DNA of 64,000 nucleotides from Escherichia phage vB_EcoM_EP57 (OR544956); one strand, 5' to 3'; numbered from the stretch's first letter, positions 6,638-51,643 are shown. Made by a program: numbers and translations. The notes: generated by a model not told the origin, from the sequence alone.

Positions 6638-8011
6638 TTAGTTTGCAGTACGGTTAGTCAGGACGTTGACCTGAACTTTAACGTAATGGAAGAAGCCAGC
6701 GTAAACATATTCAATCTTCATCCCATCGACCAGACGAGCATTGATTTGCGCATCAGTCATATCGGCACGAGAAGGAATATAAACAATAGGTTTCAGATCG
6801 ACACGCAAACCAGTCTCTTCAGAAGTAACAACTTCATTAGCGATGGAACCGTTGAGGATACCTACTTGGATTGGGTTAGCCAGAACAGCTTGTCGAATCA
6901 AAGCCAGACCGTTTGAAGTAGCACGAACACCACCACCCAGCATAGACTGTTGTTTAAACAGTGTAAACAGTGATTCTTCTGTGCGAGCTTTAAACCACAA
7001 AGCATGAACAACATAGTCAACAAAGAAACCGCTAACCATCAATCCATCACGATAGAACAGAGTTCCATGCTCTTTACGATAGATGTTACCGTTCTGTTGA
7101 ACAATATTGTTTTCCGAAGTCTGATCCAGTTTCTCGATCTCTACACCTACCAGTGTTTTACCGTGAAGAGTAGTTAAACCAGGTTGACGAGAACAGATTG
7201 CACCAACAACTGCTGCTTCTGGGAATACAGAATCTGCATCGGTCATCCACAAAGCAAAGCAAGTGTTATTATAACCGAGGTCATTCAGTCGTTCCAGAAC
7301 GTTATCTTCTGCTTTCGTTTTAATTCCAGGTTCAGAACTAGAGAAGAAGTAAACTTTATCATTCTCTTCTACCCATGCAGCCAAAGCTAGAACATCTTCT
7401 GTTTCATGGGAATCTGAAAGGGTCCAGAACCAGCTACTATCAATATCATGCAGAGCAGCGATATCTTCCGTAATAGCATTAGCATAGACAGTTTCTTGAG
7501 TGAAACCTGTGCTGTCAATAGAACCAAACTTACCTTCTACTGGAGTGAAAGTCATTGCAGCGCCGTTGTTAGCTACTGTAAACAGTGGGCCATAAACAAG
7601 ATCTGCATTGATCATTTCAGTCAGACCAACTACAATCTCTTGTGCAGTTGCAGTGTCATCAGCAATGAATTTAAATTCTTTTTTCTTGGTACCATTTTTG
7701 ATGGTAATTGTGTAAGTTGCACTATCTTCTACGATTGGAGTTAGAGTAAAGTTTGTAACTTCACGCTTACCAACCATGACTTGATCTGGTGGGAACAAAC
7801 CGTTAAACAGTTTGACTGCCATAATATACGCTGGATCATTTAATCCATAACCTGCTTCCAAAAGTGCATCGGAAGAAGAGTAATATTGAATCGCTTCGCC
7901 AGTTACGTTCTGACCTGTAAGGATCAGGGGAATATCGAACTGGGTTTCACGAATTGATGTAGCACCATACAGTAAAGTTACGGTTGCTACCTTTTCACGA
8001 AAAGTTGCCAT
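6638..8011 (-). CDS. tail sheath protein-like
   Basis: 457 aa ORF directly upstream of tube-like gene; size and position typical of contractile-tail sheath. Confidence 0.4.
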   Translation of the reverse strand: MATFREKVATVTLLYGATSIRETQFDIPLILTGQNVTGEAIQYYSSSDALLEAGYGLNDPAYIMAVKLFNGLFPPDQVMVGKREVTNFTLTPIVEDSATYTITIKNGTKKKEFKFIADDTATAQEIVVGLTEMINADLVYGPLFTVANNGAAMTFTPVEGKFGSIDSTGFTQETVYANAITEDIAALHDIDSSWFWTLSDSHETEDVLALAAWVEENDKVYFFSSSEPGIKTKAEDNVLERLNDLGYNNTCFALWMTDADSVFPEAAVVGAICSRQPGLTTLHGKTLVGVEIEKLDQTSENNIVQQNGNIYRKEHGTLFYRDGLMVSGFFVDYVVHALWFKARTEESLFTLFKQQSMLGGGVRATSNGLALIRQAVLANPIQVGILNGSIANEVVTSEETGLRVDLKPIVYIPSRADMTDAQINARLVDGMKIEYVYAGFFHYVKVQVNVLTNRTAN

Positions 8012-10459: not shown

Positions 10460-11461
10460 TTAAGCCGTAGTCAGTTTAACTACCAGTTCTGGACGGGTGT
10501 TAACTGCGAGCAGCGAGAATTCAGACTGAAGCTGAATAGTGCGGTGCTGGCTGATCATGAAGGTATACAGTTCACGAGCCTGGGTGTTAGCCAGTTCTGG
10601 AGTATCCGCAGGAGCGTAGTGCGCCTGGAACATACCTTCGATACCCATAGGCAGAACATATGCTTCACCAGCAGGGATGTTACCGTGGATATCTTCAATG
10701 TAAGTTACACCGTTCCATTCGAACACCTGAACATCCATGTTACCGCTAAGGCGGTCACGCAGAAGGTTAGGAGTTCCCTGGAAATACTGATATGCCTGGC
10801 GAACAAATGGAGAGTTAACCAGAGATGCGAAAAACTCACGAGAACACAGAGCTACGATACGGGTAGCGGTAGAGCCATCTTGTTTAGTATCGATGATGTA
10901 AGCACGAGCTTCTTGTTCGATAGTGGCTGCTGGAGAAACAGTGGTAGAAGCAAAGTCTACAGCAACAGATTTCTGGGTAGCACCCCATTCGGTATACCAG
11001 TTGTATGCAGAGTTAGCTGCACCACCTACGCCGTTATAGGCACGACCCATAACTGCTTCTGCAAAGATTTTCTCTTTGGTTTTTGCTACGTCACGCAGAA
11101 TCTGGGACATATAGCGGTTAACAACTTCAGCGTCTGTGCGCAGAGAGTCATTGATTCCTGCCATTGCAAAGCTACGGAAAGATTGAATATCTTGAGCTTT
11201 GATGTTTTTATCCAGAGGGAAGAACGGAATGCGGAACGCTTTCAGTTCTGGATTTTTCATGGTCAGGAAGTTACGCTCACCACCACGCTCACGAGCGGAG
11301 ATCAGAGCATCTTCAGCTTTTTCTTTACCGATTTCAATAGCGGTAGTTGAATGATAGTCAACACTGAACAGATTCAGGCTGGCAATCAGTGTATCAGGGG
11401 AATCCTGAAGTTCGATCATAGGGCTGAAATCTACAACCTGATCTAAAATTACTGCTGGCAT
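10460..11461 (-). CDS. major capsid protein (HK97-fold type)
   Basis: 333 aa; follows decoration and scaffold genes; terminator immediately downstream. Confidence 0.6.
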   Translation of the reverse strand: MPAVILDQVVDFSPMIELQDSPDTLIASLNLFSVDYHSTTAIEIGKEKAEDALISARERGGERNFLTMKNPELKAFRIPFFPLDKNIKAQDIQSFRSFAMAGINDSLRTDAEVVNRYMSQILRDVAKTKEKIFAEAVMGRAYNGVGGAANSAYNWYTEWGATQKSVAVDFASTTVSPAATIEQEARAYIIDTKQDGSTATRIVALCSREFFASLVNSPFVRQAYQYFQGTPNLLRDRLSGNMDVQVFEWNGVTYIEDIHGNIPAGEAYVLPMGIEGMFQAHYAPADTPELANTQARELYTFMISQHRTIQLQSEFSLLAVNTRPELVVKLTTA

Positions 11462-11482: not shown

Positions 11483-11881
11483 TTAAGAAGTGAAAACGAC
11501 TTTTTCGGTCAGTTTCAGATCATGTGTTTCCAGTGCTGCTACGCCAGCGTCATCTACCAGGGAGCCATCTTTGTAGTATACTGCAAAGCGGTTCAGAGTA
11601 AGATCACGTACGCCAACAACTGCGGTGAAAGTGTCACCTACTGCTACATCGTCAATACCGAACAGAGCATCAGTCCAAAGCAGAACTTTAGCAGCATCGG
11701 CAGCTTCAGCTTTAGCAGCTTCAGTGTTGTCAGCTTTCAGGATAGAACCAATTTTCATGGTTGCTGTTTTAACCAGGTTAACTTCACGTACACAGTGTCC
11801 AAGGTCAGAGCTAAACACTCCACCCAGAACCAGGTGTCCGAATTCCTGGCGAGAGTTAGATAAAGTAATTCCTTTAGCCAT
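11483..11881 (-). CDS. head decoration protein
   Basis: 132 aa, Ala/Gly/Val-rich; directly upstream of capsid gene. Confidence 0.45.
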   Translation of the reverse strand: MAKGITLSNSRQEFGHLVLGGVFSSDLGHCVREVNLVKTATMKIGSILKADNTEAAKAEAADAAKVLLWTDALFGIDDVAVGDTFTAVVGVRDLTLNRFAVYYKDGSLVDDAGVAALETHDLKLTEKVVFTS

Positions 11882-19959: not shown

Positions 19960-19966
19960 ATAATTC

Positions 19967-20052: not shown

Positions 20053-20058
20053 TTAATT

Positions 20059-20146: not shown

Positions 20147-20224
20147 TAAATACTAATATTTAAATTCTTTTTAAAATAGCCAGTGTTCACACCACTAACT
20201 ATGTAAGCCATATTAAAAAGAACT

Positions 20225-20310: not shown

Positions 20311-20315
20311 TAATC

Positions 20316-20406
20316 TGGCGGAAGGAGGGAGAGTCGAACTCCCAAGGCTCTTTCAAGCTCGGCGGTTTTCAAGACCGTTTTCGTCGCCACGTCGATTTGC
20401 CCTTCC
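20316..20406 (-). tRNA. tRNA-Ser (anticodon TGA), D-arm degenerate
   Basis: 91 nt; anticodon arm CGGT-CTTGAAA-ACCG; variable-arm hairpin GCTT-GAAA-GAGC; G73; CCA; D region lacks U8 and a regular stem. Confidence 0.5.
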
Positions 20407-20640
20407 ATACTTATAATCTAACATAAAATAATGTTTGTTGTCAATAGTTTTTTAAAACATTTTACCATGAATGGTGACTCCACCAACCCCCGTTCTCCAC
20501 GAACGGTGCTCTTCGAGCATTTATGTCTTCTAATATAACCGTGGCCTTTGTTTATAATGTCTGACATACTTGCCTCATTCTCTGCCACCATGATCAGTAG
20601 TGGGTTCAAATTACTTGAGCTAATTCATGTTAAAATGTTC

Positions 20641-20715
20641 TGGTGTCTTTACAAGGAATCGAACCTTGACTAAGAGTTTAGAAGACTCCTGTGCTATCCA
20701 TTACACCATAAAGAC
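20641..20715 (-). tRNA. tRNA-Arg (anticodon TCT)
   Basis: Hand-folded; anticodon arm GGAGT-CTTCTAA-ACTCT; CCA. Confidence 0.65.
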
Positions 20716-20717
20716 GT

Positions 20718-20792
20718 TGGTGGCCCTGGCTGGTTTCGATCCAGCTACCTATCGGTTATGAGCCGACAGCTCTCCCATTGAGCTACAGGGCC
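20718..20792 (-). tRNA. tRNA-Met or tRNA-Ile2 (anticodon CAT)
   Basis: Hand-folded; D-stem GCTC/GAGC; anticodon arm GTCGG-CTCATAA-CCGAT; T-loop ATCGAAA; CCA. Confidence 0.6.
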
Positions 20793-30166: not shown

Positions 30167-31165
30167 ATGACAAAACAGATTTCGGCTAGTATTATTGCGC
30201 ATTCCATTACTGAAGACGGAAAAGAGATTGTAACTTTTGAACTAGAATATCCACGTATTATTCATTCAGAATTGATGACTCACCGCCTGTTCAGTCGTAA
30301 TGCTGCTTCTAGCCGTGCTATACCTGTTAAAACACTGATTGAAATGGTGCGAAATCAACCTGCTCGTCCTTATCGTTTTGGGGCTAACCAACCTGGTATG
30401 CAGGATAAAGGTGTTGATCATGACGCTCTTATTGATGCAGGTTATACTGCTCAAGAGTGGTGGGATCTTGCCGCGCTTAGTGCAGCACGTTTTGCAGAAG
30501 AATTCTCTTTGGCAGGGTACCACAAACAAGTTGCAAACCGTCTTCTGGAACCTTTCCAACGAATTAAAACAGTTCTGACAGCAACAGAATATGAAAATTT
30601 CTGGTGGCTACGTGATGACAAAGAAGCCGATCCTACTATCGAAGCTTTGGCTAAAGAGATGCACAAAGAGTATGAAGGATCTACACCAGAAGTGCTGAAA
30701 CCAGGGCAATGGCACACACCTTATGTAGACCATTTCTATGATAATATTGGTACAGAAGGTGACGATCATTTTGTTTTTGGTGGATACTACGTTCAAGATG
30801 AATCTGGAGAAGTTGTTGTGCTTACTTTGGAAGAAGCCAAAGCTATTTCAGCTTCGTGTTGTGCACAGGTTAGCTATCGTCGTTTAAATGCAACTAAAGA
30901 TAAAGCTTTAGATATCTATGGTCGCTTGCTGACTGGGCGCAAGGTTCATGCTTCTCCGTTTGAACATCAAGCTACTCCAATTCAAGAAACATGCGAACAA
31001 TATGGAGAGAACTGTTTTGAAGATTTGTTTATCAATGCTCCTTGGGATTTTAACTCTTGGGAACCAGGTATTACCCATGTAGATCGTAATGGTAAGTTTT
31101 GGTCTGGCAATTTCAAAGGCTGGATTCAACATCGTCAACTTTTAACAAATCATACTAAATGGTGA
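30167..31165 (+). CDS. thyX: flavin-dependent thymidylate synthase-like protein (ThyX family)
   Basis: ThyX signature HR-x7-S-x-R (THRLFSRNAASSR); 332 aa. Confidence 0.55.
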   Translation: MTKQISASIIAHSITEDGKEIVTFELEYPRIIHSELMTHRLFSRNAASSRAIPVKTLIEMVRNQPARPYRFGANQPGMQDKGVDHDALIDAGYTAQEWWDLAALSAARFAEEFSLAGYHKQVANRLLEPFQRIKTVLTATEYENFWWLRDDKEADPTIEALAKEMHKEYEGSTPEVLKPGQWHTPYVDHFYDNIGTEGDDHFVFGGYYVQDESGEVVVLTLEEAKAISASCCAQVSYRRLNATKDKALDIYGRLLTGRKVHASPFEHQATPIQETCEQYGENCFEDLFINAPWDFNSWEPGITHVDRNGKFWSGNFKGWIQHRQLLTNHTKW

Positions 31166-31941: not shown

Positions 31942-34182
31942 TTGATTCGTTTTGTAACTAAATCTAATGGTAAGACAGAGGAGTTTAATCCAGAAAAACT
32001 TCGCAAGTGGTCTGAATTTGCAGCAGGTAAACTAAACTGGTCTGAAATTGAATTAGAAGCTGTGAAGCGGTGTTATGACGGTGTGTCTACACGTGATCTG
32101 CATAAAGCAATGATTGCAGCGTGTATTGACAAGAAAACACAAGCTTACAGTGATATGGCAGGAAGACTTCTTCTGGGTATGATTTACAAACAGGCTCATG
32201 GGGGATACCACAGTATCCCTTCACTGAATACCTTTTATCATGATATGGTAGAACGTGGACATTGGGCTAAAATGGATTATACTGATGAAGAGATCAAAGA
32301 AATAGGTAAGATTGTAAAGCATAATAAAAATCTAACTTATGGTTATTCTGTTTTACGTCAGATGGTAGATAAATATCTTATTCGAGATGCAGTAAACGAT
32401 GTGGTGCATGAGTCTCCACAATTTCTTTTCATTGGTATCGCAATGAAGGTTATGGAGATCCAACCAAAAGAACGCCGTATAGAAGATATTAAAAAACTTT
32501 ATACTTATGTTAGCGATCTTAAGATTAATCTGCCATCGCCGTATCTGACAACTCTACGAACTCCAATCAAAGGAAGTGCGTCTTGTTGTTTATTCCGTGC
32601 AGACGATACGGCAGAATCTTTAGCCATTGCTAATTACTTAGCTCATGAGTATACGTTGAATAACGCAGGTATTGGTGTTAATCTTCAAACTCGTGCCACA
32701 GGTCAAGGTGTTAAGAATAATCGTATTATTCATGGTGGTCTTCTTCCGTATCTGAAATGGATGGAAGATAGTGTTGGAGCTTCGAAGCAAGCAAGCCGTG
32801 GAGGTAGTGCTACAGTTACCTTCACCATACTTGAACCAGACTTCGACGATCTGATTCGACTGAAGAATCCAACAACACCTATAGATAAACGAGTAGACAA
32901 ACTGGATTATTCTATTGTTGTTAACCGTTCGTTCTTGCGTCGAGCAGCAAAAAACGAAGATTGGATGTTAGTTAGTTGTGATGATGCTCCTGAACTTTAT
33001 GAAGCTTTGTATAAAAGTGAAGAAGAGTTTGATGCAGTTTATGACAAAGTAAGCCGTCGTCGCATTAAGAAAAAATTTGTTAAGGCTCGTGATCTTCTGA
33101 CAGAGATTATTGTTCAACGTGCAGAAACAGGACGTATTTACATGTTCTTTGCTGACAACGTTAACAACCATACACCTTTCCTGGATACGGTGTATCAATC
33201 AAACCTGTGTCAAGAGATCTTCTTACCAACTAAAGCTTTCCACAGTATGCCGGATCTCTTTACTGGTGAGAATACAGAAGATCAAGAATTGGCTTTATGC
33301 TTCTTATCTTCTATTGTTGCTGGTCGTGTCTTACCTGAAGAATATGAGGATGTTGCATATTACACTGTATTGACAATTGACAACGTTATTGAAACAATGG
33401 ATTATCCATTTAAACATAACGAAATAACTGCTAAAGCACGTAGATCTATTGGTGTAGGTATTACAAACTTAGCGCATTATTTGGCAAGTAATTTTGTAAA
33501 TTATTCAGATGCTTATGCTAAAAAATTAATGCATGAACTTGCAGAACGTCATTACTTTTGGTTGGCAAAAGCCTCTCTGCGTCTGGCTAAGGAAAAAGGT
33601 AATGCAGAATGGATCGATAAGACCAAATGGCCTCAAGGTTGGCTACCAATTGACACTTATGCTAAAACAGTAGATAGTATCGGTAATTTTGATCTTAAAA
33701 TGGACTGGGAAGGCTTACGTGCTGAAATCATTGAACAAGGTGGTATCCGTAACAGTGTCTTGGCTGCTATTGCACCTAATGAGTCCAGCAGTTTGGTAAG
33801 CAATACTACTAACTCTCTGTACCCTGTTCGTGATACTATTATGTATAAACAAAGTCAGAAAGGTAGCGTATTATTTATTGTTCCAGATTACGAAAAACTG
33901 AAAATGTTCTACCAATCCGCCTGGGATACTCCGGCTAAAGACCTTGCAGAAATGTATGGTATCTTTACCAAGTTTACGGACCAAGGAATTTCTTGTGATT
34001 CTTGGTTAGATTATTCTAAATTGGTAGGGGGACGTTTATCAGTTAAAGAAGAGATGAAATTTATTTTGAACTTTGCTAGACTGGGTGGTAAGTCATTGTA
34101 TTACCTTAATAGTAGAACAAAATCAGCAGATTCTTTAGCACAAGAAGATTCTGATGGTGGTTGTGAAGCTTGCAAGATGTGA
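31942..34182 (+). CDS. nrdA: ribonucleoside-diphosphate reductase alpha subunit (class I)
   Basis: 746 aa; N-terminal ATP-cone; TTG start after GGGAGGAG. Confidence 0.8.
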   Translation: MIRFVTKSNGKTEEFNPEKLRKWSEFAAGKLNWSEIELEAVKRCYDGVSTRDLHKAMIAACIDKKTQAYSDMAGRLLLGMIYKQAHGGYHSIPSLNTFYHDMVERGHWAKMDYTDEEIKEIGKIVKHNKNLTYGYSVLRQMVDKYLIRDAVNDVVHESPQFLFIGIAMKVMEIQPKERRIEDIKKLYTYVSDLKINLPSPYLTTLRTPIKGSASCCLFRADDTAESLAIANYLAHEYTLNNAGIGVNLQTRATGQGVKNNRIIHGGLLPYLKWMEDSVGASKQASRGGSATVTFTILEPDFDDLIRLKNPTTPIDKRVDKLDYSIVVNRSFLRRAAKNEDWMLVSCDDAPELYEALYKSEEEFDAVYDKVSRRRIKKKFVKARDLLTEIIVQRAETGRIYMFFADNVNNHTPFLDTVYQSNLCQEIFLPTKAFHSMPDLFTGENTEDQELALCFLSSIVAGRVLPEEYEDVAYYTVLTIDNVIETMDYPFKHNEITAKARRSIGVGITNLAHYLASNFVNYSDAYAKKLMHELAERHYFWLAKASLRLAKEKGNAEWIDKTKWPQGWLPIDTYAKTVDSIGNFDLKMDWEGLRAEIIEQGGIRNSVLAAIAPNESSSLVSNTTNSLYPVRDTIMYKQSQKGSVLFIVPDYEKLKMFYQSAWDTPAKDLAEMYGIFTKFTDQGISCDSWLDYSKLVGGRLSVKEEMKFILNFARLGGKSLYYLNSRTKSADSLAQEDSDGGCEACKM

Positions 34183-34226: not shown

Positions 34227-35312
34227 ATGGCAGCAATTAATTTACACAATGAAGTTTACAAAACAGGAAAATATCCAGTATTTTTGGGGGAGCAATTAGG
34301 GATCTTTGATTCTGTTAACGTAACTTATCCAGAAATGCACAAACTCTACAAACTTCAAAAAGCACAAGATTGGGATGAAAACGAAGTTAATCTGGATCAG
34401 ACACGTAAAGATTTCGTAGCTTGTTCTAAAAACAACTATGATGTTATGATTAAAAACTTATCGTTCCAATGGGAAAATGATTCTCTTGCAAAATCAATCA
34501 TCACTTTGTTCTCTCCATTCTTGAGTAACAATGAAGCCTGTGCTATGATGATGAAGCAGAGTGAAATGGAAGTTCTCCATGCGTTAACGTATTCTGAAAT
34601 AATCCGTCAATGTACTCCAGATCCAATTGAAGTCATCAATCAGATTATGATTAATGATAAAATTTTCAATCGTATGGGTATCATTGCTGATATCATGGGT
34701 CAGTTGGAAGAAGCTGGTCATAAGTATGCTCTAGGATTGATTGAAGCTAACGATGAACTTCGCTTGCTGATTCTTAAAGGGATGGTAGCCCTGATTGGAT
34801 TAGAAGGTATTCAGTTTATATCTTCCTTCTCTGCTACTTTTGCTATGGCAGAACAACAATTGTTTGTTGGGGCTTGTAAACTGATCCAGAAAATTATGCT
34901 AGATGAAATCTTGCATGTTAAGATGGACTATGCTGTAATTGATGCATTGATGCATGACCCAATTTGGCGTAAAATTTACGAAGATAATATTGAAGAGTTG
35001 ACTTTGATCCTCGACACTGTTGTTGAACAAGAGGAACAGTGGTGTGACTACCTGTTTAGTGAAGGTCGTTTTATTGTAGGTCTTAACGCCGAATTGTCTA
35101 AACAGTGGGTTTATTTCAATGCTGCTCCTATTTATCGTCGATTGAAAATGAAAGCCAAGTTTAAAGCACCTAAACATAGTCCTTTAGCTTGGATGGAAAA
35201 ATGGTTGAATCCTGATTTGATTCAGTCAGCAGCCCAAGAGATTCAGTTAACTAATTACAAATTGAATTCAGCTAACAAAGATCTCTCTGATGATGAGGAG
35301 CTTGACTTCTAA
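34227..35312 (+). CDS. nrdB: ribonucleoside-diphosphate reductase beta subunit
   Basis: 361 aa directly after nrdA; E-x-x-H iron-ligand pattern (EMEVLHA). Confidence 0.7.
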   Translation: MAAINLHNEVYKTGKYPVFLGEQLGIFDSVNVTYPEMHKLYKLQKAQDWDENEVNLDQTRKDFVACSKNNYDVMIKNLSFQWENDSLAKSIITLFSPFLSNNEACAMMMKQSEMEVLHALTYSEIIRQCTPDPIEVINQIMINDKIFNRMGIIADIMGQLEEAGHKYALGLIEANDELRLLILKGMVALIGLEGIQFISSFSATFAMAEQQLFVGACKLIQKIMLDEILHVKMDYAVIDALMHDPIWRKIYEDNIEELTLILDTVVEQEEQWCDYLFSEGRFIVGLNAELSKQWVYFNAAPIYRRLKMKAKFKAPKHSPLAWMEKWLNPDLIQSAAQEIQLTNYKLNSANKDLSDDEELDF

Positions 35313-36130: not shown

Positions 36131-36139
36131 GGAGAACTG

Positions 36140-37132
36140 ATGCGCTATCTGGTAACAGGTGGTCTTGGTTTTATTGGGAGTGCCGTGGTGCGCTCTCTTT
36201 GTCAAGATCCTAATAACGAAGTTTTTGTCGTTGATAAGATGGGCTATGCAGCAGATATTGAGAATGTAGGCGATATCACTCACGTTAAACTAAGCATAAC
36301 AGATTTGGCAAACGAAACCCAGGTCAAAAGTTTAGTAGTAGAGTGCAATCCTGACTTCATCATTCACTTAGCGGCAGAAAGTCATGTGGATAATTCTATC
36401 AAGAATCCACGAGTTTTCATCGACTCCAATATTATCGGTACATACAATTTATTGGAAGCTGCAAGGCTCCTCCCAAAAAATAAACTGAAGATGTTCGTAC
36501 ACGTCTCCACAGACGAAGTGTACGGCGATATGGCAGACTCTGGCGTTCCCTTTACCGAAAAGACAGCTTATGCCCCTTCAAGCCCGTACAGTGCGTCTAA
36601 GGCAGCATCTGACCATCTTGTGAAAGCTTGGCACCGCACCTACGATTTGCCTGTTGTGATAACCAACTGCTCCAATAACTTTGGGCCTTATCAACATCCA
36701 GAAAAGCTGATCCCAAAAATCATCACAAGTATCTTGACGAATAAAGAGATTCCGGTGTATGGTAAAGGCGACCAGGTGCGAGACTGGCTTTTTGTTGAGG
36801 ATCATGCGCGAGCTATTCTTCAAGTGGCAACAGGTGGAGAACCAGGTCAAACGTATAATGTTGGAACACGTAATCCCAAAACCAATATGGAGATCATCTA
36901 TATGGTTTGTGACTATATGGATACTGTACATCCAGAAGCAGTAACCTACCCTTCTTCCAACTTGATAACTTTTGTTGAAGATCGTAAAGGACATGACTTG
37001 CGTTATGAAATCAATCCTTCTAAGATAGAGTCTGAACTGGGCTGGAGTGCAAACTCTACATTTGAACAAGATCTCTACTCAACGATTGAATGGTACTTAA
37101 ACAACCCTCAATGGTGGAGTGAGAAAATTTAA
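36140..37132 (+). CDS. rmlB: dTDP-glucose 4,6-dehydratase
   Basis: [12 protein letters not shown]-binding motif; [20 protein letters not shown] catalytic block; followed by rmlA/C/D. Confidence 0.75.
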
Positions 37133-37140
37133 GGAGGGTT

Positions 37141-38019
37141 ATGAAAGGTATTATTTTGGCGGGAGGAAGTGGAACCCGCCTTCATCCGGTAACACGCAGT
37201 GTGAGCAAGCAATTGCTCCCTGTGTATGACAAACCCATGATCTACTACCCTTTATCGGTATTGATGTTGGCTGACATTAAGGATATTTTAATCATCACCA
37301 CACCAGGTGATCAGGAAGACTTTGAGTATCTTCTCGGAGATGGGTCTATGTTTGGGATAAAACTCACTTACGCAATCCAATCCGAGCCACGAGGTCTTGC
37401 GGAAGCTTTCATCATAGGTAAAGATTTTATCGGAGAAGACTCTGTTGCTCTTATTTTAGGTGACAACCTATTCTTCGGACAAAGCTTTGGTAAACTACTG
37501 ATTAACGCTAGTGAGATGGTAGATGTTTGGGGTGGAGCTTGTATCTTCGGGTATTTGGTGAAAGATCCTGAACGATTCGGTGTGGTTGAATTTGGGAGTA
37601 ATCGTCAAGCTATTTCTATTGAAGAGAAACCTGAAAATCCTAAATCAGATTATGCTGTCACAGGTTTGTATTTCTATGATAACTCTGTTATTCAACGTGC
37701 ATTAGAAGTAACCCCTTCCGCGCGTGGAGAACTGGAGATCACTGATATCAATCGCAGCTACCTAGAAGACAGCAAGTTACAAGTGGAAGTTCTCGGACGA
37801 GGATTTACTTGGCTTGACACAGGAACACACGCCAGTCTGATGGAAGCTGGTCAATTCGTGCAGACTATTGAGAACCGTCAAGGATTGAAGATTGCGTGCC
37901 TGGAAGAAATTGCTTTCAAAAAAGGGTGGATTTCTTTAGAGACTTTGGTGTATCATGGAAACTCACTGAAGAAAACAGAGTACGGGCAATACCTACTCAA
38001 ATTAGCGGAGAGAAAATGA
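37141..38019 (+). CDS. rmlA: glucose-1-phosphate thymidylyltransferase
   Basis: N-terminal [16 protein letters not shown]. Confidence 0.8.
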
Positions 38020-38582
38020 AAGTAGAAAAAACAAAAATTGAAGGTGCGGTAATTATCAAACCAGACGTTTATAAAGATGATCGTGGTTTCTTTCTAGAAA
38101 CATATAATGAACAAAAATACGAAGATATTATTGGTAGACAAACTTTCGTTCAAGATAACATGTCTAAATCAAACTTCGGTGTTTTGCGAGGAATGCACTT
38201 TCAAACAAATAACCCGCAAGGTAAGCTTGTTCGTTGTGTAAGTGGGGAAGTATTGGATTTCGCTGTAGATTTACGTAAAGATAGTCCAACTTACGGTGCT
38301 TGGGACGGTGTTGTTCTTCGTGCACGACACCATACGCAGTTTTGGCTTCCACCTGGTTTGGCACATGGTTTTATAGTTTTGAGTATGGATGCGATCTTTG
38401 AATACAAATGCACAACTCCATACGACCCTTCTAGTGAACAAAGTTTACGTTGGGATGATCCTGATATAGGGATCGATTGGGGCTTCGATATGATTTTTGA
38501 CGAAGGTTTTAAACCTATTCTATCAACAAAAGATGCAATGGCTAAATCTTTTCAACAGTTACGTAGCGAGGGTGTATGCTAA
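38016..38582 (+). CDS. rmlC: dTDP-4-dehydrorhamnose 3,5-epimerase
   Basis: 188 aa from ATG overlapping rmlA stop (ATGA); cupin-like sequence. Confidence 0.65.
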
Positions 38583-39418
38583 CATATCTGGTATTGGGCG
38601 GTAATGGACAACTGGGACAAGCTTTACGTAAAGTGGCTCCTTCAAATGTATCTTTAATTTATCCTAAAGAACGTGTAGATATTACAAATTTTGAAGCTGT
38701 GCGAAACGCTATTATTGAAGATTATGTAGATGGTGTTATTAATTGCGCCGCTTATACGGCTGTAGATAAAGCAGAACATGATTTTGCTACTGCTTTGGCT
38801 GTTAATGCGTATGGACCTGCAAATATTGCGGCAGTGTGCAGCAAACTTAAAATTGATTTTGTGCATATTTCTACAGACTATATTTTTAATTATTCTCATC
38901 CTATTTTTGAAGATACTACACCTAACCCAATAAACAATTATGGGTATACGAAAGAACTTGGTGAAAAAATGGTGCGAGGAGTTAACCCAAATGCATATAT
39001 TATTCGAACAGCCTCGGTATATAGCGAATTTGGAAATAACTTTCTAAAAACCATGTTGTCTCGCTATAATGATGGACAACGTGATTTTATTATTGTTGCT
39101 GATCAGTTCTCTTGTCCAACATATGCTCCAGATTTAGCAGAAGCTATTTTTGAAGTATTAAAAACAGGTTGGTCAAGGTCTGTTAAGACTTACCATTTTG
39201 CAGGAAGCCATCTTATTTCTTGGGCGGAGTTTGCGGAAAAAATCTTGACACAGATGCCAGAACCTGTTAAGATATCGGCGGTATCAGCTTCAACCTATAA
39301 TGCTCCAGCAGCACGTCCGGTGAAGTCACAACTAGTAACCAGTCACTATCTTACAAAATCAGATTTAAATAAAGGTATTGAACAGTCTTTAGCAGTATTA
39401 CTTAATAAGGAGAGGTAA
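38576..39418 (+). CDS. rmlD: dTDP-4-dehydrorhamnose reductase
   Basis: 280 aa; N-terminal LVLGGNGQLG; completes B-A-C-D order. Confidence 0.7.
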   Translation: MLTYLVLGGNGQLGQALRKVAPSNVSLIYPKERVDITNFEAVRNAIIEDYVDGVINCAAYTAVDKAEHDFATALAVNAYGPANIAAVCSKLKIDFVHISTDYIFNYSHPIFEDTTPNPINNYGYTKELGEKMVRGVNPNAYIIRTASVYSEFGNNFLKTMLSRYNDGQRDFIIVADQFSCPTYAPDLAEAIFEVLKTGWSRSVKTYHFAGSHLISWAEFAEKILTQMPEPVKISAVSASTYNAPAARPVKSQLVTSHYLTKSDLNKGIEQSLAVLLNKER

Positions 39419-39678
39419 TGGAATTTGTAATTTTTGGTAAACCTAACTGTCAATTTTGCGAAATGTCAAAACAACTATTAACCATGCGCAATAAACAGTT
39501 TGAATATTTAAGTCTTGATCAAGACTATGATTTAGAATCAATGACTAAAACAGTTGTTGATCTTACCGGAGTTCCTCCACGCACATTTCCACAAATTCTG
39601 TCCGAAGTGAACGGGGAGGTAACATACGTAGGCGGTTTTACCGAACTGCGTGATCTCATGGCTCAAATTGCGGAGTAA
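39418..39678 (+). CDS. glutaredoxin / NrdH-like redoxin
   Basis: 86 aa; CQFC active-site motif. Confidence 0.6.
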   Translation: MEFVIFGKPNCQFCEMSKQLLTMRNKQFEYLSLDQDYDLESMTKTVVDLTGVPPRTFPQILSEVNGEVTYVGGFTELRDLMAQIAE

Positions 39679-41169: not shown

Positions 41170-41673
41170 TTGATGGGTGTAGCAACAATAGCTATCGGAA
41201 GAAGCGGTATAGATGAGTGCTATCAAACGGGACTCGTAAAACCTAACGAATTTCGTCAAATTTGTGTAAACCATATTGAAAAAGAGATTGCTCTTACTTT
41301 AGAGAATATGACCCTCCGAGATAAACTGGAAATGTTTAAATGTTGGTGTCTAGGAGAAGATTGGCTTTTAAACCATTTTCAAGAACTTTCTGATAGTAAA
41401 GAAAGCTTGTTTGATTGTATAATAGGAATAGCTGGCTCCGATCCTAGCCTTCTGCACATAACAGAAGAAGAGGCGAAGTTACTGTTCTTAAGTAATTTGT
41501 TTAATAAGAAAGCACTGCTTGTTCGTGATTGCAGTGATCTTCTTAATAACCCGCTCGCAACGTCTGATCAAATTTTTGTTGACAAAGAGACACTACGTGC
41601 GATAGAATACATCTGCAAATATGTGAATGGTGGGAAAGCGGTTCTTAAAACATTAACAGAGGAGGAAGAATAG
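41170..41673 (+). CDS. hypothetical protein
   Basis: ORF track 167 aa. Confidence 0.35.
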   Translation: MMGVATIAIGRSGIDECYQTGLVKPNEFRQICVNHIEKEIALTLENMTLRDKLEMFKCWCLGEDWLLNHFQELSDSKESLFDCIIGIAGSDPSLLHITEEEAKLLFLSNLFNKKALLVRDCSDLLNNPLATSDQIFVDKETLRAIEYICKYVNGGKAVLKTLTEEEE

Positions 41674-42275
41674 TGACGACAATTATTGCAACCAAAAATA
41701 AGATTTTGAGTGATGGTAAGGTAACTTTTGGTGGACGTGTAGATTCTATTAATTTCAAAAAGGTCCGAAAAATTGGAGATTACCTTGTGGGTGGTGCTGG
41801 TCGTCTGACCTCCGTGCTTTCTTTCTTTCAATGGTTTGAACAAAATCTACAGTGCGAAGCAGCACGTGATGCTGTCCCTGGTTTGATGATTCACTCTGAT
41901 CCAGATAAAGAAGATGAAGAGTTTATTGCACTTGTTGTTCATCCAGACGGACGTATTTTCCTGCACGAAGGTAACAACCCAACACGTGCATATCCGATTG
42001 ATGAAGAATATTATGCGGTAGGAAGTGGGTCAGACTTTGCTTTAGCTGCTCTTGATGCAGGGGCAACACCAGAACAGGCTATGGAAGTAGCTAAAAAGCG
42101 AGATGCTTTTTCTGGTGGTGAAACATTTATTGAAGAACAAGACGAGATTATTGAATTAACAGACGATGATTTAGAAAACTTCTCCAAAGAAGAATTGATC
42201 AATCTTTTGAAATTCGGTAATCCCTACGGTGAAGAAGAACCTCGTAACGTGGCAGGGTTGCAGAAAACAACTTGA
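41673..42275 (+). CDS. HslV / proteasome beta-subunit-like Ntn-hydrolase peptidase
   Basis: N-terminal MTTII (Thr nucleophile after Met removal), GGAGR and AVGSGSDFALAA blocks; acidic C-terminal tail. Confidence 0.5.
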   Translation: MTTIIATKNKILSDGKVTFGGRVDSINFKKVRKIGDYLVGGAGRLTSVLSFFQWFEQNLQCEAARDAVPGLMIHSDPDKEDEEFIALVVHPDGRIFLHEGNNPTRAYPIDEEYYAVGSGSDFALAALDAGATPEQAMEVAKKRDAFSGGETFIEEQDEIIELTDDDLENFSKEELINLLKFGNPYGEEEPRNVAGLQKTT

Positions 42276-43322: not shown

Positions 43323-43559
43323 ATGGGTAAACTAATTATGACAGTGGCTATTGATTTTGATGAAGTAGATGAAAGCCTCAACCTTTCACTTTCTACTGAC
43401 GTAGATGGCGAAATGGATAATATTGAAGCAGCTACTGCTCTTTTCTTCAAAAAAGCCATTGAAGTTTATGCCGAACATGCTGCAAATCAGGCAGTAGATT
43501 ACGGTGGTATCGTGCGAGCTTTAGTTCACTCTACCGAGGGCAATGACTGGGAAGATTAA
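43323..43559 (+). CDS. hypothetical acidic protein
   Basis: ORF track 78 aa. Confidence 0.3.
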   Translation: MGKLIMTVAIDFDEVDESLNLSLSTDVDGEMDNIEAATALFFKKAIEVYAEHAANQAVDYGGIVRALVHSTEGNDWED

Positions 43560-43762
43560 TGGCTTACAATTATTACTGCATTTATGCACATGAAAAGAAA
43601 AAAGGTGACACTGGGACTAACGTTTATGCGGAGTCCGAATCTCATGCAAAAGAGATTGGTGCTATCCTTTTATCACGCTGGACTGGAAATAATTACAGTG
43701 CAGAAGATATGTTTGCAGAAGTGGATTCTAGTATCCAAGAAGACAACATAACAACTACGTGA
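43559..43762 (+). CDS. hypothetical protein
   Basis: ORF track 67 aa. Confidence 0.3.
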   Translation: MAYNYYCIYAHEKKKGDTGTNVYAESESHAKEIGAILLSRWTGNNYSAEDMFAEVDSSIQEDNITTT

Positions 43763-47327: not shown

Positions 47328-47508
47328 AACAGTAGAAGAAGCCGTAAAAGCAGCTTATGAGGCTTTAGCGGAAGCAGAGCAGTTAGCAGACGAGACTGGT
47401 GAAGGTTTCAGCTTCTCCCCTGAATATGGGATGGGTGGTTATTATGATCCAGAAGATGAAAATGAGAATACTGGAACAAATTGGCATCCATCTTCTTTAA
47501 GTTGTTAA
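47311..47508 (+). CDS. small acidic protein, W-x-S-S-x-S-C terminus (paralog 1)
   Basis: 65 aa ending NWHPSSLSC-stop. Confidence 0.4.
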   Translation: MTTKFKTVEEAVKAAYEALAEAEQLADETGEGFSFSPEYGMGGYYDPEDENENTGTNWHPSSLSC

Positions 47509-47518
47509 TAGGAGGTAA

Positions 47519-47789
47519 AGTGGGAATCGAAGATATCAAAGGTTATAAACCGCATACCGATGACAAAATTGGTAAAGTGAATGCTATTAAAGATGCTGAA
47601 GTTCGATTAGGATTAATCTTTGATGCTCTAATGTCTGAATTGTGGGCTGAACTGGATGATTGTGAAGATTTGGAAGAGTCTACCAATATATCCACCCGCC
47701 TTGACCAAATTTCAATAGCAAAGACTAAGTTGAAAGAAGCTTCTATGTGGGCCTGTCGTTCCGTTTTCCAACCAGAGGAGAAATACTAA
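47519..47789 (+). CDS. hypothetical protein
   Basis: GTG at 47519 after AGGAGG within track ORF 47481..47789. Confidence 0.3.
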
Positions 47790-48379: not shown

Positions 48380-49321
48380 ATGGTGTTAATTGGTAGCCGT
48401 GCATTGCAAATTCATGCTATGGACATGGGAAAAGACTTGTATCGCCCTTGTGTAGATTTAGATTACCTGTGTACAGAACAAGAGTGGGAAGAATTATCAA
48501 AAATGTTCTCTCAAGACGAGTTTGTTGAACTTGTAGAACGTAAAGGAAACAAAGGCCATGTCAAAATGATAGCTGGTGCACATTTGGAATACGATATTGC
48601 TTCTCAAGGAGATAGCACAGAAGCTTTGATTAGCTATTGTGAAGATTCTGATGATGTTCGTCGAACTTACGCTGGACATGTTGTTGCTCCTTTAGATGTG
48701 CTCTACCTTCTTAAAATGAGTCATCGTTTTAAAAAGGATAGTCCTCACTTCTTTAAAACTATGAAAGATATTCATTTCATGCGGTCACTGGGCGCAAAGA
48801 TCCCAGAAAATCTTAAGAGTATTTATGAGTTGCGTGAGAAAGAAACATACACTTACTCTCATCCGAACTTAAACGTAAAAAGTAAAGAGTTCTTTAAAGG
48901 TGACGAGGTTCCGTATGTTTATGATCATGATTCTATCCATGAAGCAATCGCGTTAATGGATGCTCCAGCATATAAATCTTATATGAAAGATGGAAGTGAA
49001 GTTATGACCAGCAAAGAAAAGTTTTTTGCTCAACCAAAACATGTGCGGCTGTTAGGTGTTTATGAAGAAGCGTGTGTTTTGGCTTTGGAACGTTCACAAA
49101 TTCCTTTCGGTGAAGAGATCGGAGGTCCAACCCCTAAGCAAAGTTTTATAATGGCTTTATCTAAAGTCTGCACATCCATCACTAGTGGTTGGTTTAGGGA
49201 ATATGCTTGGGAAAACTTTTATGTTGTTACTAAGCTATATGAAAACATGGGCGAAAACGACTATGTTGAACGTTTTAAAGCTAATCAACATGTAGTTAAG
49301 CCTTTTGAAGGAGGTTATTAA
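48380..49321 (+). CDS. hypothetical protein, possible nucleotidyltransferase fold
   Basis: 313 aa; N-terminal LIGSRALQ...VDLDYL resembles the GS...DxD pattern. Confidence 0.3.
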   Translation: MVLIGSRALQIHAMDMGKDLYRPCVDLDYLCTEQEWEELSKMFSQDEFVELVERKGNKGHVKMIAGAHLEYDIASQGDSTEALISYCEDSDDVRRTYAGHVVAPLDVLYLLKMSHRFKKDSPHFFKTMKDIHFMRSLGAKIPENLKSIYELREKETYTYSHPNLNVKSKEFFKGDEVPYVYDHDSIHEAIALMDAPAYKSYMKDGSEVMTSKEKFFAQPKHVRLLGVYEEACVLALERSQIPFGEEIGGPTPKQSFIMALSKVCTSITSGWFREYAWENFYVVTKLYENMGENDYVERFKANQHVVKPFEGGY

Positions 49322-49718
49322 TATGTGTGGATATCTTTCAGAAAGTTATTTCAAAGTGACCCAGGAGGATTTAGAAAAAGCACGATTGAAACTGACAGCT
49401 ATTATTGAATACTCTAATACTGTTGATCACAGATTAAAGACTACTAAAGTATCTGTTCCTTGTTGGTTAGGTTTACGGCATAAAACAATGTCTCAGCATG
49501 ACCATGTTGTTCGAGAGATGCATGGTTGGTGTTGGTTTCACGATGTGGCTCTGCATTTTGGTTATATTACAGAAGAAGAGCATAGATTCTGTGAACTAAC
49601 ATATCGTATTCCAACCCTTTACGATTTAGATTTGTGGAAGAAAGCAAACGAGATTTTTCTTACAGAAAGTGATTGGCGTAAAGTTATGGCTTGTCTTGAA
49701 TGGAGGGGTAATGAGTAA
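49305..49718 (+). CDS. hypothetical protein
   Basis: ORF track 137 aa. Confidence 0.35.
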   Translation: MKEVINMCGYLSESYFKVTQEDLEKARLKLTAIIEYSNTVDHRLKTTKVSVPCWLGLRHKTMSQHDHVVREMHGWCWFHDVALHFGYITEEEHRFCELTYRIPTLYDLDLWKKANEIFLTESDWRKVMACLEWRGNE

Positions 49719-50394
49719 AACAGTTTTGTCTATGTTTGACGGATCTGGGATCATGGTGTTACGTTATGCCGAAGCAGGTCACAAGTGTTTTTGTGTAAAC
49801 GCTGATGAAGGGGATCACGGTAAATACGAGGTTAGGATGGAGCACCCAAACATAACCTATGTGAATGCTTGGATAGATTCTACATTCAACCCTGAAGATC
49901 ATGGGATACCTAAACCCGATATTATTTTTGGATTTCCACCTTGCACTATGTTAGCAGGTAGTGGTAGCAAACATGAACGTAGCACAGAGGAATTAGATGA
50001 AGCTTTAGCTAATATTCGTGTAGTGGAAGCTTTGGGTAACAAATATAATGTTCCTTGGATGATTGAGAACCCAGTAGGTAAACTTTCAACCTTATGGCGT
50101 AAACCCGATTTTTACTTTGATCCTTATGAGTATGGTGGGTATTTGTTTGAAGAGGAAGGAAGCTTTCATCCTAAAATGCCTACCCGTGATGGGTATACAA
50201 AGAAAACTTGTATTTGGCACGGCAATGGTTTTGTTCAACCAGTGAAGAAACCAGTAGATCATATAGGCTGCTTTTGGGGTTGGAAAAGCTTAGGTGGAGC
50301 TAGTGCAAAAACAAAACAACTTAGATCCCTAACCGCACGTGGTTTTGCTCGTGCCGTGTTTTTGTCTAACAATCTTCTAGATAAGGAGAAATAA
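49714..50394 (+). CDS. cytosine-C5 methyltransferase-like protein (short, atypical)
   Basis: Motif I-like LSMFDGSGI, motif IV-like FGFPPCT, motif VI-like IENPVG; ATG at 49714. Confidence 0.3.
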   Translation, partial: SKTVLSMFDGSGIMVLRYAEAGHKCFCVNADEGDHGKYEVRMEHPNITYVNAWIDSTFNPEDHGIPKPDIIFGFPPCTMLAGSGSKHERSTEELDEALANIRVVEALGNKYNVPWMIENPVGKLSTLWRKPDFYFDPYEYGGYLFEEEGSFHPKMPTRDGYTKKTCIWHGNGFVQPVKKPVDHIGCFWGWKSLGGASAKTKQLRSLTARGFARAVFLSNNLLDKEK

Positions 50395-51047
50395 TGTCAA
50401 ATTCAAAACCAGTAGTTGCTTATCAAGTAGATCGTAATGATGGTGAAGGAAGTGTTGTTATTTTCAGTACACACGGTCTTGAGGCTCGTCGAAAAGGTGC
50501 ATATCGTTTAGAATGTGAGTTTGAAGACTGCACAAGCCACCGTGTCAAACAATTCGATCAATATGCTGATAAAGGCTTCGTCCCTGTCAAAGCCTTACTG
50601 GAAGATGGTTGGTGGGTATATTCTGCTTTTGATTACTCAAGACTGGAGGAGTCAGCTTCGTGCGCCTCCGAGATCGAATATGATGATTACTATGACACTC
50701 TGTACCTTCCAGAATGGCTTGTCTTTTCTCCTGATGAAAAAAGTGTCTGGAAAACGTGGGAAGAAATGGAGAGACATGCGTATAGCATCAATGAAGCTTT
50801 AGATCGTAAAGCTTGGTTTATTGAGGCAGTAAAGGCGGCATACCCCCAATTCTCATTCTGTGATTTCACTGGTGGCCCAGGATACATTACACATACAGCC
50901 TCTTTTGAGTTTCCTGGTTCACGTTATAAGGGTAATGTTTATTGGGACTGGGATGAAAATAAACAACCTTCGGCTCAAGACTTCCGTTGCTATGTTTGTC
51001 AAGGTGATCAAGAAGCCCTTGACAAATACCTTGAAAGTCTGGTATAG
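50394..51047 (+). CDS. hypothetical protein
   Basis: ORF track 217 aa. Confidence 0.35.
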   Translation: MSNSKPVVAYQVDRNDGEGSVVIFSTHGLEARRKGAYRLECEFEDCTSHRVKQFDQYADKGFVPVKALLEDGWWVYSAFDYSRLEESASCASEIEYDDYYDTLYLPEWLVFSPDEKSVWKTWEEMERHAYSINEALDRKAWFIEAVKAAYPQFSFCDFTGGPGYITHTASFEFPGSRYKGNVYWDWDENKQPSAQDFRCYVCQGDQEALDKYLESLV

Positions 51048-51409
51048 TGCCGATATCTGAACAAAGCCTCCTGTTTCAGGGGGCTTTTCTTTTATAGGAG
51101 GGAATATGTTTCAATGCACATTGGTTGGTGAGCAAACTAAAAGAAAAAGAGAAACCATTTCCTACTCTGCTTGATCGTTCTCTTGTGGAAGATGCAGGTA
51201 AAGCATATGCAGACTATGCGTATGCAGACGGGAAATATTTGGAAGATGATAAGGCTAACCATTTGCTTTATGTTTACTATGAAGCTGAATCTGCCTACGA
51301 TAATTATTACAGCATGTCTAACATCCTACGTCTGTTTGCAGAGTTTGATATTTATTAAACAAATAAACCACTCAAGGGGCTTCGGCCCCTTTCTTATTAG
51401 GAGAATAAA

Positions 51410-51643
51410 ATGACTGAAGAAATCCGTGATTACTACCTTGCACATTACGTTTACTACTTTGCCAATGCTACACAAAAAGGGGAAGGTAATCTTTACTTGG
51501 CAACAGGACATGGAACAGGCGTTAGGAAATCAGAAGATAAACTTCAAACACCTGTAGTTGTAGTGATGCAAAACATAAGTTACCTAGCAAGTTGTACTGA
51601 AACCGAATTTAACGCGTCTGAAACGCAATCTAACGAAGAATAA
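51410..51643 (+). CDS. hypothetical protein
   Basis: 77 aa; RBS AGGAGAA; last rightward gene. Confidence 0.35.
   Translation: MTEEIRDYYLAHYVYYFANATQKGEGNLYLATGHGTGVRKSEDKLQTPVVVVMQNISYLASCTETEFNASETQSNEE

Follow-up and report, generated by a model that had tools for sequence, protein, structure and literature searches.

Genes for the synthesis of deoxythymidine diphosphate (dTDP)-L-rhamnose are found in a group of large coliphages, and what the phages use them for has been a standing remark in the coliphage literature since 2012-2021. In public records of the subfamily Stephanstirmvirinae (about 70 genomes, including phAPEC8 and phi92) the rml genes are already annotated as such. Olsen et al. 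(2020) called the phage rml pathway 'peculiar' and speculated about a rhamnosylation of hydroxymethylated nucleotides (PMC7552041), Maffei et al. (2021) described a 'putative dTDP glycosylation machinery' in these phages (PMC8594841), and a paper of 2023 reported that phage ESCO37 is devoid of rmlA and rmlB (PMC10269720). The pathway is thus known, annotated and discussed in print; in the literature searched we found no paper on what the phage rhamnose is used for. Here we analyse the rml block of Escherichia phage vB_EcoM_EP57 (OR544956), which lies in a stretch of 64,000 nucleotides (the window), together with the glycosyltransferase genes of related phages. Compared with the published Stephanstirmvirinae blocks (phAPEC8, tuntematon, phi92 and the BASEL phages Bas60-62) nothing material differs, and the window represents a further isolate of the genus. 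New are the evidence that ties 6-deoxyhexose genes, both physically and phylogenetically, to a mobile cassette of three transferases, a clean present/absent cassette of rmlB and rmlA, with a division of labour between rmlBA, rmlCD and the host, and a predicted C-terminal -TT glycosylation tag on virion proteins of proteobacterial phages. The best reading of the locus, to which we give an even chance, is that the rhamnose feeds the glycosylation of virion proteins, the acceptor being deduced by homology and context from relatives.

Several described systems resemble this locus in part. Bacterial RmlABCD (RfbABCD), as in the O-antigen clusters of Salmonella and E. coli, comprise the same four enzyme families, full length, as the phage set. 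Unlike the bacterial set, the phage genes are carried by a lytic phage in an nrdAB-glutaredoxin (grx) operon without a polysaccharide cluster around them, their order is B-A-C-D instead of B-D-A-C as in E. coli, and rmlBA is an optional cassette. Chloroviruses and mimivirus also make rhamnose (PBCV-1 A64R; mimivirus UDP-rhamnose). These are eukaryotic giant viruses with a bifunctional epimerase/reductase, and they use the uridine diphosphate (UDP)-rhamnose route, whereas the phage uses the bacterial dTDP route. T4-type DNA glucosylation and the TET-associated glycosyltransferases likewise involve a phage transferase which uses a nucleotide sugar and is encoded among DNA-metabolism genes; the donor is a UDP-sugar in T4-type glucosylation as compared to a dTDP-sugar in this phage. 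Finally, O-linked glycans at the C-termini of capsid and tail-tube subunits, dependent on phage transferases, were reportedly described by Freeman et al. (2023, Cell Host Microbe) for the mycobacteriophages Che8 and Myrna. The glycan shields of mycobacteriophages change antibody recognition. Glycans on the capsids of Che8-type phages are also mentioned in a paper that cites Freeman et al. (PMC11256854).

The rml block of the window consists of five co-directional genes at 36140-39678, spaced by 9 nt or overlapping (Table 1). The true start of rmlC is the ATG at 38016, which overlaps the stop codon of rmlA (ATGA); the mechanical list of open reading frames (ORFs) places it at an upstream GTG (37896). 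The identity of the Rml proteins was judged by NCBIfam equivalog models, comparing the score with the curated cut-off. RmlB (TIGR01181, 430.8 bits, cut-off 365.1, residues 2-327 covered), RmlA (TIGR01207, 468.2 bits, cut-off 360.7), RmlC (TIGR01221, 225.0 bits, cut-off 155.8) and RmlD (TIGR01214, 237.6 bits, cut-off 224.1) all score above it, and the Pfam assignments concur. Alignment to solved enzymes extends this to the catalytic residues. RmlB aligns with 1g1a over residues 1-326 (E 2e-110) and retains T133/D134/E135 and Y167xxxK171 (1g1a numbering), its YSASK aligning to Y167/K171. RmlA aligns with 4ho0 over residues 1-291 (E 2.7e-126), with GGSGTRL, GDN, EKP and DTG retained. RmlC aligns with 1dzr (E 4e-56); its catalytic set, the His63/Asp170 dyad with Lys73 and Tyr133 (S. 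enterica numbering), is kept as H63, K73, Y133 and D170. In RmlD, GGNGQLG, STDY and YGYTK (YxxxK) are aligned to 3sc6 (E 7e-44). The first-pass annotation of this DNA had recognised the four enzymes by their hallmark motifs; all four proved to be full length and above the equivalog cut-offs, and neither an incomplete alignment nor a missing catalytic residue was seen against the four structures. As judged from sequence, the four genes encode a complete, apparently functional dTDP-L-rhamnose pathway. RmlA, RmlB, RmlC and RmlD would convert glucose-1-phosphate and deoxythymidine triphosphate via dTDP-glucose, dTDP-4-keto-6-deoxyglucose and dTDP-4-keto-rhamnose to dTDP-L-rhamnose.

At the nucleotide level the block shares 99.6% identity with Escherichia phage tuntematon, 99.5% with phAPEC8 (JX561091) and 99.5-99.6% with nieznany, with the same flanks in all three. 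It matches 70 phage records, essentially of the genus Phapecoctavirus, subfamily Stephanstirmvirinae; the source phage is a Phapecoctavirus (phAPEC8-like), and the whole window corresponds to about positions 80-149 kb of tuntematon. Since phi92 shares both the B-A-C-D-grx order and the flanks, the four genes were probably already together before the two genera separated.

The first-pass annotation had recognised no glycosyltransferase in the window. This holds for the ORFs scanned there: with Pfam, neither the non-structural ORFs from 85 amino acids (aa) upwards nor ten structural-module ORFs (132-371 aa) matched a glycosyltransferase, a hydroxymethylase or a TET/JBP enzyme; the scans did not extend to the ORFs for sheath, major capsid protein, portal, terminase and tape measure or to a few structural ORFs below 140 aa. 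Matches to 'Serglycin' were spurious, arising from the GS linkers used to concatenate the ORFs, and were ignored. For the genome as a whole the statement fails. When the search was extended through relatives, four consecutive genes, gp113-gp116, which RefSeq annotates as glycosyltransferases, were found in tuntematon at 48463-51607, which is about 29-32 kb beyond the left end of the window in tuntematon coordinates, and all four are full length in 67 of 67 related records. In tuntematon they lie directly upstream of genes for a primase/helicase, a Dam-like methylase and a DNA polymerase. The BASEL annotators labelled two of them 'putative glycosyltransferase' and two 'putative disaccharide synthase'. 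NCBIfam has no model that matches any of the four proteins. There is fairly strong evidence that the cluster comprises two GT-A enzymes (gp113 and gp114) and two GT-B enzymes; the latter, gp115 and gp116, are paralogues with 41% identity to each other and match the GT-B families PF13524 and PF13692. Directly upstream of the cluster, at about 39-47 kb of tuntematon (L002/L003), are genes for TerC, TelA, a TerF-like vWA protein, TerD and a cell-wall hydrolase, and a distant relative (L008:1201-8331) shows the same tellurite-resistance-type gene set upstream of its transferases.

The rhamnose genes and the transferases go together in several ways. Relatives of gp114 (at least 60% identity) occur in 126 records and relatives of RmlC (at least 60%) in 129 records, and these are essentially the same phages: Phapecoctavirus, the phiWec type, Justusliebigvirus and Klebsiella relatives. 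No Vequintavirus appeared in either search among the matches listed or in the organism counts. Beyond this group, a gp113-gp114-gp115 cassette is found at 36-63% identity in unrelated phages, and sugar-nucleotide genes may be embedded in it. A gene for a short-chain dehydrogenase/reductase (SDR) lies between the gp113-like and gp114-like genes in a distant myophage (L007), an Enterobacter prophage (L010) and a viral contig (L104). The best match of the L007 and L010 proteins is dTDP-glucose 4,6-dehydratase (TIGR01181, E 3e-50 to 8e-53, full length, below the cut-off), and the L104 gene is 63% identical to the L010 copy. In another contig (L131) an RmlD-like gene is located 1.4 kb upstream of the cassette. 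Distant bacterial homologues of gp115 were found directly downstream of rmlC-B-A-D (L075) and beside rmlA/rmlD (L036, L033). Because of this co-occurrence, the embedded sugar genes and the bacterial rml neighbourhoods, there is fairly strong support for the transferase cluster as the most likely consumer of the dTDP-6-deoxyhexose.

Which molecule would receive the sugar is suggested by homologues of the transferases. In the Che8-type mycobacteriophage Taj, gp107 begins with a GT-A domain to which residues 6-203 of gp114 can be aligned (E 5e-14, 23% identity). By tblastn, gp114 finds about 360 mycobacteriophage records of clusters F and C, including Myrna gp234, as its nearest relatives outside its own family; no similarity was seen between gp113 and Taj gp109. 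The likeness to Che8/Myrna virion O-glycosylation thus lies in phage-encoded glycosyltransferases there and their homologue gp114 here. The locus differs from these mycobacteriophages in its Proteobacteria hosts, in its two small GT-A enzymes with GT-B enzymes, and in having its own nucleotide-sugar pathway.

In temperate phages the cassette is a neighbour of head genes. It is located immediately upstream of terminase and capsid genes in prophages of Pseudomonas silvicola (L009), Enterobacter huaxiensis (L010) and Serratia (L011), and immediately downstream of the major capsid gene, in the head-tail operon, in Pseudomonas alliivorans (L012) and in viral contigs (L113-116, L126). Capsid and tail-tube proteins of these phages end in Thr-Thr, for example ...GANTTT and ...ANPTT in E. 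huaxiensis, ...SANPTT in Serratia, and ...LTSSSTT and ...SEPTT in P. alliivorans. In 31 distant viral contigs that carry a relative of gp113 there are 467 ORFs of at least 90 aa, and 32 of these have a C-terminal -TT, as compared to none of 684 ORFs from bacterial control loci (Fisher p 1.5e-13; p 1.4e-11 with the 27 non-redundant tails); in replication-region loci of Stephanstirmvirus the count was 0 of 245. Thirty-one -TT proteins were scanned with Pfam, 26 from the 31 contigs and five from the prophage loci L010, L012 and L021. Twelve were major capsid proteins, and further matches were to four tail-tube families and to head-completion, tail-completion and connector families. The C-terminal tag on capsid and tail-tube proteins is Ser/Thr (-TT) in these cassette-bearing proteobacterial phages; in Taj, the capsid and the major tail protein both end in -GS. 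Three Pseudomonas prophage loci with only gp114-like and gp115-like genes contain no ORFs ending in -TT. Since the tag is missing where gp113 is missing, this hints, in a small sample of three mutually related loci, that the gp113-like enzyme reads the -TT tag. In Paraburkholderia sp. J67 (L021:3302-11816) a prophage-like region contains a gp113-like gene followed by a 504-aa ORF which best matches gp115 and is long enough to be a candidate gp114-gp115 fusion; flanking proteins end in ...AGSTT (461 aa), ...SGSTS (165 aa) and ...EEQTT (136 aa).

Among the acceptors named by the first-pass annotation (virion proteins, host surface polymers, DNA), the evidence therefore favours virion proteins. 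With moderate confidence, the cluster would build a short rhamnose-containing O-glycan on virion proteins, and this glycan would shield or alter the particle surface in the manner of the C-terminal glycosylation of Che8/Myrna-type mycobacteriophages. More tentatively, and somewhat short of an even chance, we propose that an undescribed virion O-glycosylation system is present in the Stephanstirmvirinae and, more widely, in temperate phages that infect Enterobacterales, Pseudomonas and Burkholderiales, and that it would decorate the -TT C-termini of capsid, tail-tube and connector proteins. As part of the same tentative proposal, the system would consist of the mobile gp113-gp114-gp115 cassette, often with its own 6-deoxyhexose supply, which in the Stephanstirmvirinae would be the full dTDP-L-rhamnose pathway. 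If true, it would be the first such system known from phages with Gram-negative hosts, extending to them a phenomenon so far shown in mycobacteriophages only, and it would explain the purpose of the 'peculiar' phage rml genes. It would also be relevant to therapy, as Phapecoctavirus and Justusliebigvirus are popular broad-host-range therapy candidates, and would provide a portable -TT tag and enzyme cassette for the engineering of glycosylated phage particles. Together with the division of labour with the host and the link between sugar and transferase genes, the predicted C-terminal -TT tag makes the purpose of the rhamnose genes testable by mass spectrometry of virions.

Several observations weigh against glycosylated virion proteins, above all in the Stephanstirmvirinae themselves. 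The canonical -TT-COOH is not present on the capsid, sheath or tube proteins of this subfamily, and in the large lytic phages it is the replication module, not the neighbourhood of the head genes, that harbours the cassette. The capsid protein of a transferase-bearing, divergent Klebsiella phage, 05F01, ends in LSDANP. The literature searched shows no glycosylated virions for any phage of this group. The -TT survey was based on mechanical ORF calls from partly redundant contigs (27 unique tails), and its controls were bacterial and replication loci, not matched capsid families of cassette-less phages. Moreover, rhamnose could be one of several sugars for the four transferases, or none of them, and the association of rml and transferase genes within the Stephanstirmvirinae could reflect shared vertical descent.

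The C-termini of the candidate acceptors (Table 1) were compared with those of relatives. The capsid ending LTTA is common to Phapecoctavirus and Justusliebigvirus; in rV5 and PVP-SE1, which are without the transferase genes, the capsid ends in VTLKNGG and STGTFA, respectively. In three lineages with transferases the last two residues of the decoration protein are TS, as compared to the endings LGEE in rV5 and VTSI in PVP-SE1. The sheath orthologue of Justusliebigvirus has an extra Ser/Thr-rich tail, ...RTANSQNSNSSTVSS (...SQNSNSSTVSS). Genome-wide, three ORFs end in -TT: the tailspike gp130, a 67-aa ORF at 43559-43762 and an HslV-like protein. The 67-aa ORF (+ strand) is acidic and ends in ...QEDNITTT, phi92 gp054 ends in ...QEDDITTT, and the product may be a small protein that carries the tag. 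For the HslV-like protein (41673-42275) the -KTT ending was not accepted as a tag, since it is not conserved in phi92 or ESCO37. This gene (+ strand) encodes an HslV/proteasome-like peptidase whose C-terminal ~30 residues are wholly different between the window phage, ESCO37 and phi92. A published negative glycostain on ten phages, none of them known to belong to this phage group, was not used as evidence (PMC12894461). At 6140-6591 (- strand) a 28-bp deletion between two TTGCAAC repeats has divided the homologue of tuntematon gp151 (159 aa) into two ORFs of 82 aa each; the JohannJBalmer counterpart of gp151 carries the annotation tail tube protein. The deletion shifts the frame of a structural gene that seems to be essential, and either an error of assembly or a defective variant may account for it.

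The position of the genes allows another acceptor, DNA. The rml genes lie in a nucleotide-metabolism block and the transferase cluster lies beside genes for replication and DNA methylation, and the idea that dTDP-rhamnose is transferred to hydroxymethylated or otherwise activated bases of the phage DNA, T4-like and as an evasion of host nucleases, is in print (Olsen et al. 2020; PMC7552041) and was repeated (PMC10844046). Two sub-threshold matches of gp114 lean the same way, one to the Pfam family TAGT (TET-associated glycosyltransferase), which is limited to 37 residues at the DXD motif (E 1e-3), and a weak one to PHROG 842 (beta-glucosyl-hydroxymethylcytosine alpha-glucosyltransferase; E 7.6e-6). 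We rejected these matches as a lead to DNA modification, as they are sub-threshold, the TAGT match covers 37 residues at the DXD motif, and a partner base-modifying enzyme is missing: no deoxynucleoside monophosphate hydroxymethylase, TET/JBP enzyme or other base-activating enzyme was found by Pfam among the window ORFs scanned, and none is annotated in tuntematon 1-90000 and 101282-144820. The structural models of the transferases do not show the fold of the T4 alpha- or beta-glucosyltransferase. The ThyX-like gene near the rml block has close homologues in PVP-SE1, which has no rml genes (73.6% similarity according to a note in the phi92 record), and in a Pseudomonas phage, and relatives of the phage are reported to be 'exceptionally susceptible' to restriction-modification systems (PMC8594841). 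The cassette also occurs in small temperate phages, beside capsid genes and with -TT-tagged capsid and tail proteins; Pfam matches of the called genes identified no base-modification gene in the adjoining short unassigned ORFs. We therefore consider DNA glycosylation unlikely, and return to proteins of the virion as the favoured acceptor.

The folds of the transferases bear on a further alternative. The models show the same GT-A and GT-B folds as the polysaccharide transferases GlfT2, TarP, RmlT and WrtF, and rhamnose typically occurs in O-antigens and in the lipopolysaccharide (LPS) core. The enzymes might rhamnosylate the LPS core, the O-antigen, the enterobacterial common antigen (ECA) or intermediates linked to undecaprenyl diphosphate, and a host envelope remodelled in this way would prevent superinfection or keep the progeny from sticking to debris. 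The receptors reported for this phage group, ECA and the first outer-core glucose (PMC8594841; PMC12753057), fit this explanation, and where temperate phages carry the cassette between their lysis and terminase genes, it could act as a moron for lysogenic conversion. On the other hand, the window ORFs scanned yielded no flippase, polymerase, ligase or GtrA/GtrB-like membrane component, and none is annotated beside the cassette. Parts of Gtr-type seroconversion (GtrA, GtrB, serotype-specific Gtr, O-acetylase) are likewise missing from the window ORFs by Pfam and from the surroundings of the cluster, the check for the rest of the genome being by annotation only. Presumably a short lytic cycle cannot replace the LPS already present at the surface. 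Remodelling of the envelope also leaves unexplained why the cassette co-occurs so strongly with -TT tags on capsid and tail-tube proteins and why the cassette is found inside head-tail operons, and we regard it as improbable.

Bacterial relatives of the GT-B enzymes point to a further kind of target. In Burkholderia and Trinickia a GT-B homologue follows an invasin-type adhesin gene, a neighbourhood that suggests a protein acceptor and to that extent also speaks for the favoured reading. In detail, Burkholderia dolosa (L013:3025-8440) and Trinickia symbiotica (L014:3742-10026) have a gp115-type gene after genes for an invasin/intimin-type inverse autotransporter and a ~560-aa protein, and these may be adhesin-glycosylation loci. 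Non-virion protein targets thus probably occur in the enzyme family, and the transferase cluster of tuntematon and L008 directly follows the TerC, TelA, TerF-like vWA protein, TerD and hydrolase genes. The sugar might accordingly go to a host protein or a non-virion phage protein, similar to the rhamnosylation by EarP-type enzymes, or to a small molecule such as a product of the Ter cluster. This explanation offers no specific candidate target, the prophage cassettes travel without Ter genes and the -TT association points to virion proteins instead; we hold it to be quite improbable as compared to the glycosylation of virion proteins.

The rmlB and rmlA genes form a cassette that is either present or absent (Table 1). 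It is bordered by a 5-bp repeat, GGAGA (Shine-Dalgarno), at 36131-36135 and 38007-38011. About 24 of the 70 related records match the query at positions 1868-3539 only (rmlC, rmlD and the glutaredoxin gene), and rmlC and rmlD are retained in all 70. Natural isolates that lack rmlBA include ESCO37, Mt1B1_P17 and anhysbys. In ESCO37, a viable isolate without rmlBA (PMC10269720), the junction reads TAAGGAGAGAAAATG and joins an upstream 108-aa ORF to rmlC via a single GGAGA. The G+C content at third codon positions is 0.41 for rmlB, 0.39 for rmlA, 0.26 for rmlC and 0.22 for rmlD, and 0.22-0.34 for the ten neighbouring genes measured, so that rmlB and rmlA stand apart in composition. A recent capture of rmlBA from E. 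coli was considered and rejected, since the phage genes share no more than 64-70% of their nucleotides with rffG/rffH and rfbBA of E. coli.

Among complete E. coli genomes, DNA similar to rmlB-rmlA (rffG/rffH of the ECA cluster, or rfbBA) is present in 5423 of 5426 and rfbC in 2597 of 5426, the latter count being a lower bound at the sensitivity of blastn. It is fairly well supported that nearly every E. coli supplies dTDP-4-keto-6-deoxyglucose via RffH/RffG of ECA synthesis and that about half carry rmlC. Because hosts nearly all have rmlBA-like genes and only about half have rmlC, a fairly strong case can be made for rmlC and rmlD as the indispensable half of the phage pathway and for rmlB and rmlA as an optional flux booster. 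The dispensability of rmlBA, together with the apparent insertion of the pathway into an nrdAB-grx block, would also fit a purely metabolic module, that is a buffer of dTTP and dTDP-sugar or a top-up of host rhamnose with no dedicated acceptor, the transferase cluster being unrelated. The strict conservation of rmlC and rmlD across two genera is hard to explain without a use of the end product, and in relatives the sugar-nucleotide genes are physically embedded in the transferase cassette. A module of this kind is most improbable.

Table 1. Positions of the genes and elements discussed, counted from the first nucleotide of the window
Feature	Position	Strand	Remarks
rmlB	36140..37132	+	dTDP-glucose 4,6-dehydratase, 330 aa
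rmlA	37141..38019	+	glucose-1-phosphate thymidylyltransferase, 292 aa
rmlC	38016..38582	+	dTDP-4-dehydrorhamnose 3,5-epimerase, 188 aa
rmlD	38576..39418	+	dTDP-4-dehydrorhamnose reductase, 280 aa
glutaredoxin gene	39418..39678	+	86 aa; Pfam Glutaredoxin E 1.8e-9
rmlB-rmlA present/absent cassette	36136..38011	+	1,876 bp
major capsid protein	10460..11461	-	candidate acceptor, inferred only; ends ...VVKLTTA; identified by tblastn
head decoration protein	11483..11881	-	candidate acceptor, inferred only; ends ...KVVFTS
tail sheath	6638..8011	-	candidate acceptor, weak inference; ends ...LTNRTAN
tailspike gp130	outside window		candidate acceptor; ends ...VVDVPTT
NrdA	31942-34182		window gene near rml block
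NrdB	34227-35312		window gene near rml block
ThyX-like gene	30167-31165	+	divergent; 332 aa; Pfam Thy1 33.3 bits, cut-off 24.8

The neighbours which the first-pass annotation had named, the glutaredoxin gene after rmlD and nrdAB and a ThyX-like gene nearby, are all present. In PVP-SE1, which is without rml genes, the homologues of NrdB (gp139) and of the glutaredoxin (gp141) are one gene apart according to the similarity notes in the phi92 record. For this reason the glutaredoxin is probably the partner and reductant of NrdAB, outside the sugar pathway, and the rml block looks like an insertion into an nrdAB-grx operon. No terminator-like site was found between nrdB and the glutaredoxin gene, and the block is tightly packed downstream of nrdB. 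A promoter scan gave 47 promoter-like sites as compared to 36.3 +/- 6.5 in shuffled sequences; terminator-like sites were at chance level (7 against 7.7), the sole clean intergenic one following nrdA. In view of this outcome the operon structure is deduced from gene packing only. The ThyX-like protein is unusually long, has weak matches to Pfam Thy1 (E 5e-8) and TIGR02170 (E 1.5e-7), and shows THRLFSRNAASSR as signature motif, not RHR...S. It is preceded by a putative NT5C-like 5'-nucleotidase gene (Pfam NT5C, 23.6 bits, just below the cut-off of 24.8).

Other features of the window are of separate interest. A cluster of ten tRNA genes (18831-20792, - strand: Met x2, Ile, Pro, Gln, Gly, Thr, Asn, Ser and Arg) sits at the strand switch between the structural and the early modules. 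A 102-aa ORF at 47481-47789 (+ strand) contains an Acb2/Tad1 hairpin domain (Pfam PF24729, E 1e-17) and is likely a sponge for the cyclic-nucleotide signals of anti-phage defence. A DUF7277+DUF7275 protein (E 2e-74) is encoded at 48380-49321 (+ strand). The nearby gene at 49669-50394 (+ strand) is labelled 'Dcm' in tuntematon and has no Pfam methyltransferase match at E <= 0.01; downstream of it the ORF pattern differs from that of tuntematon, where a Sir2-like gene is located. Finally, a serine recombinase/invertase (Resolvase N-terminal domain, E 8e-17) is encoded at 58115-58792 (- strand) in this strictly lytic phage, and in the equivalent region of phi92 the recombinase is annotated as a DNA invertase.

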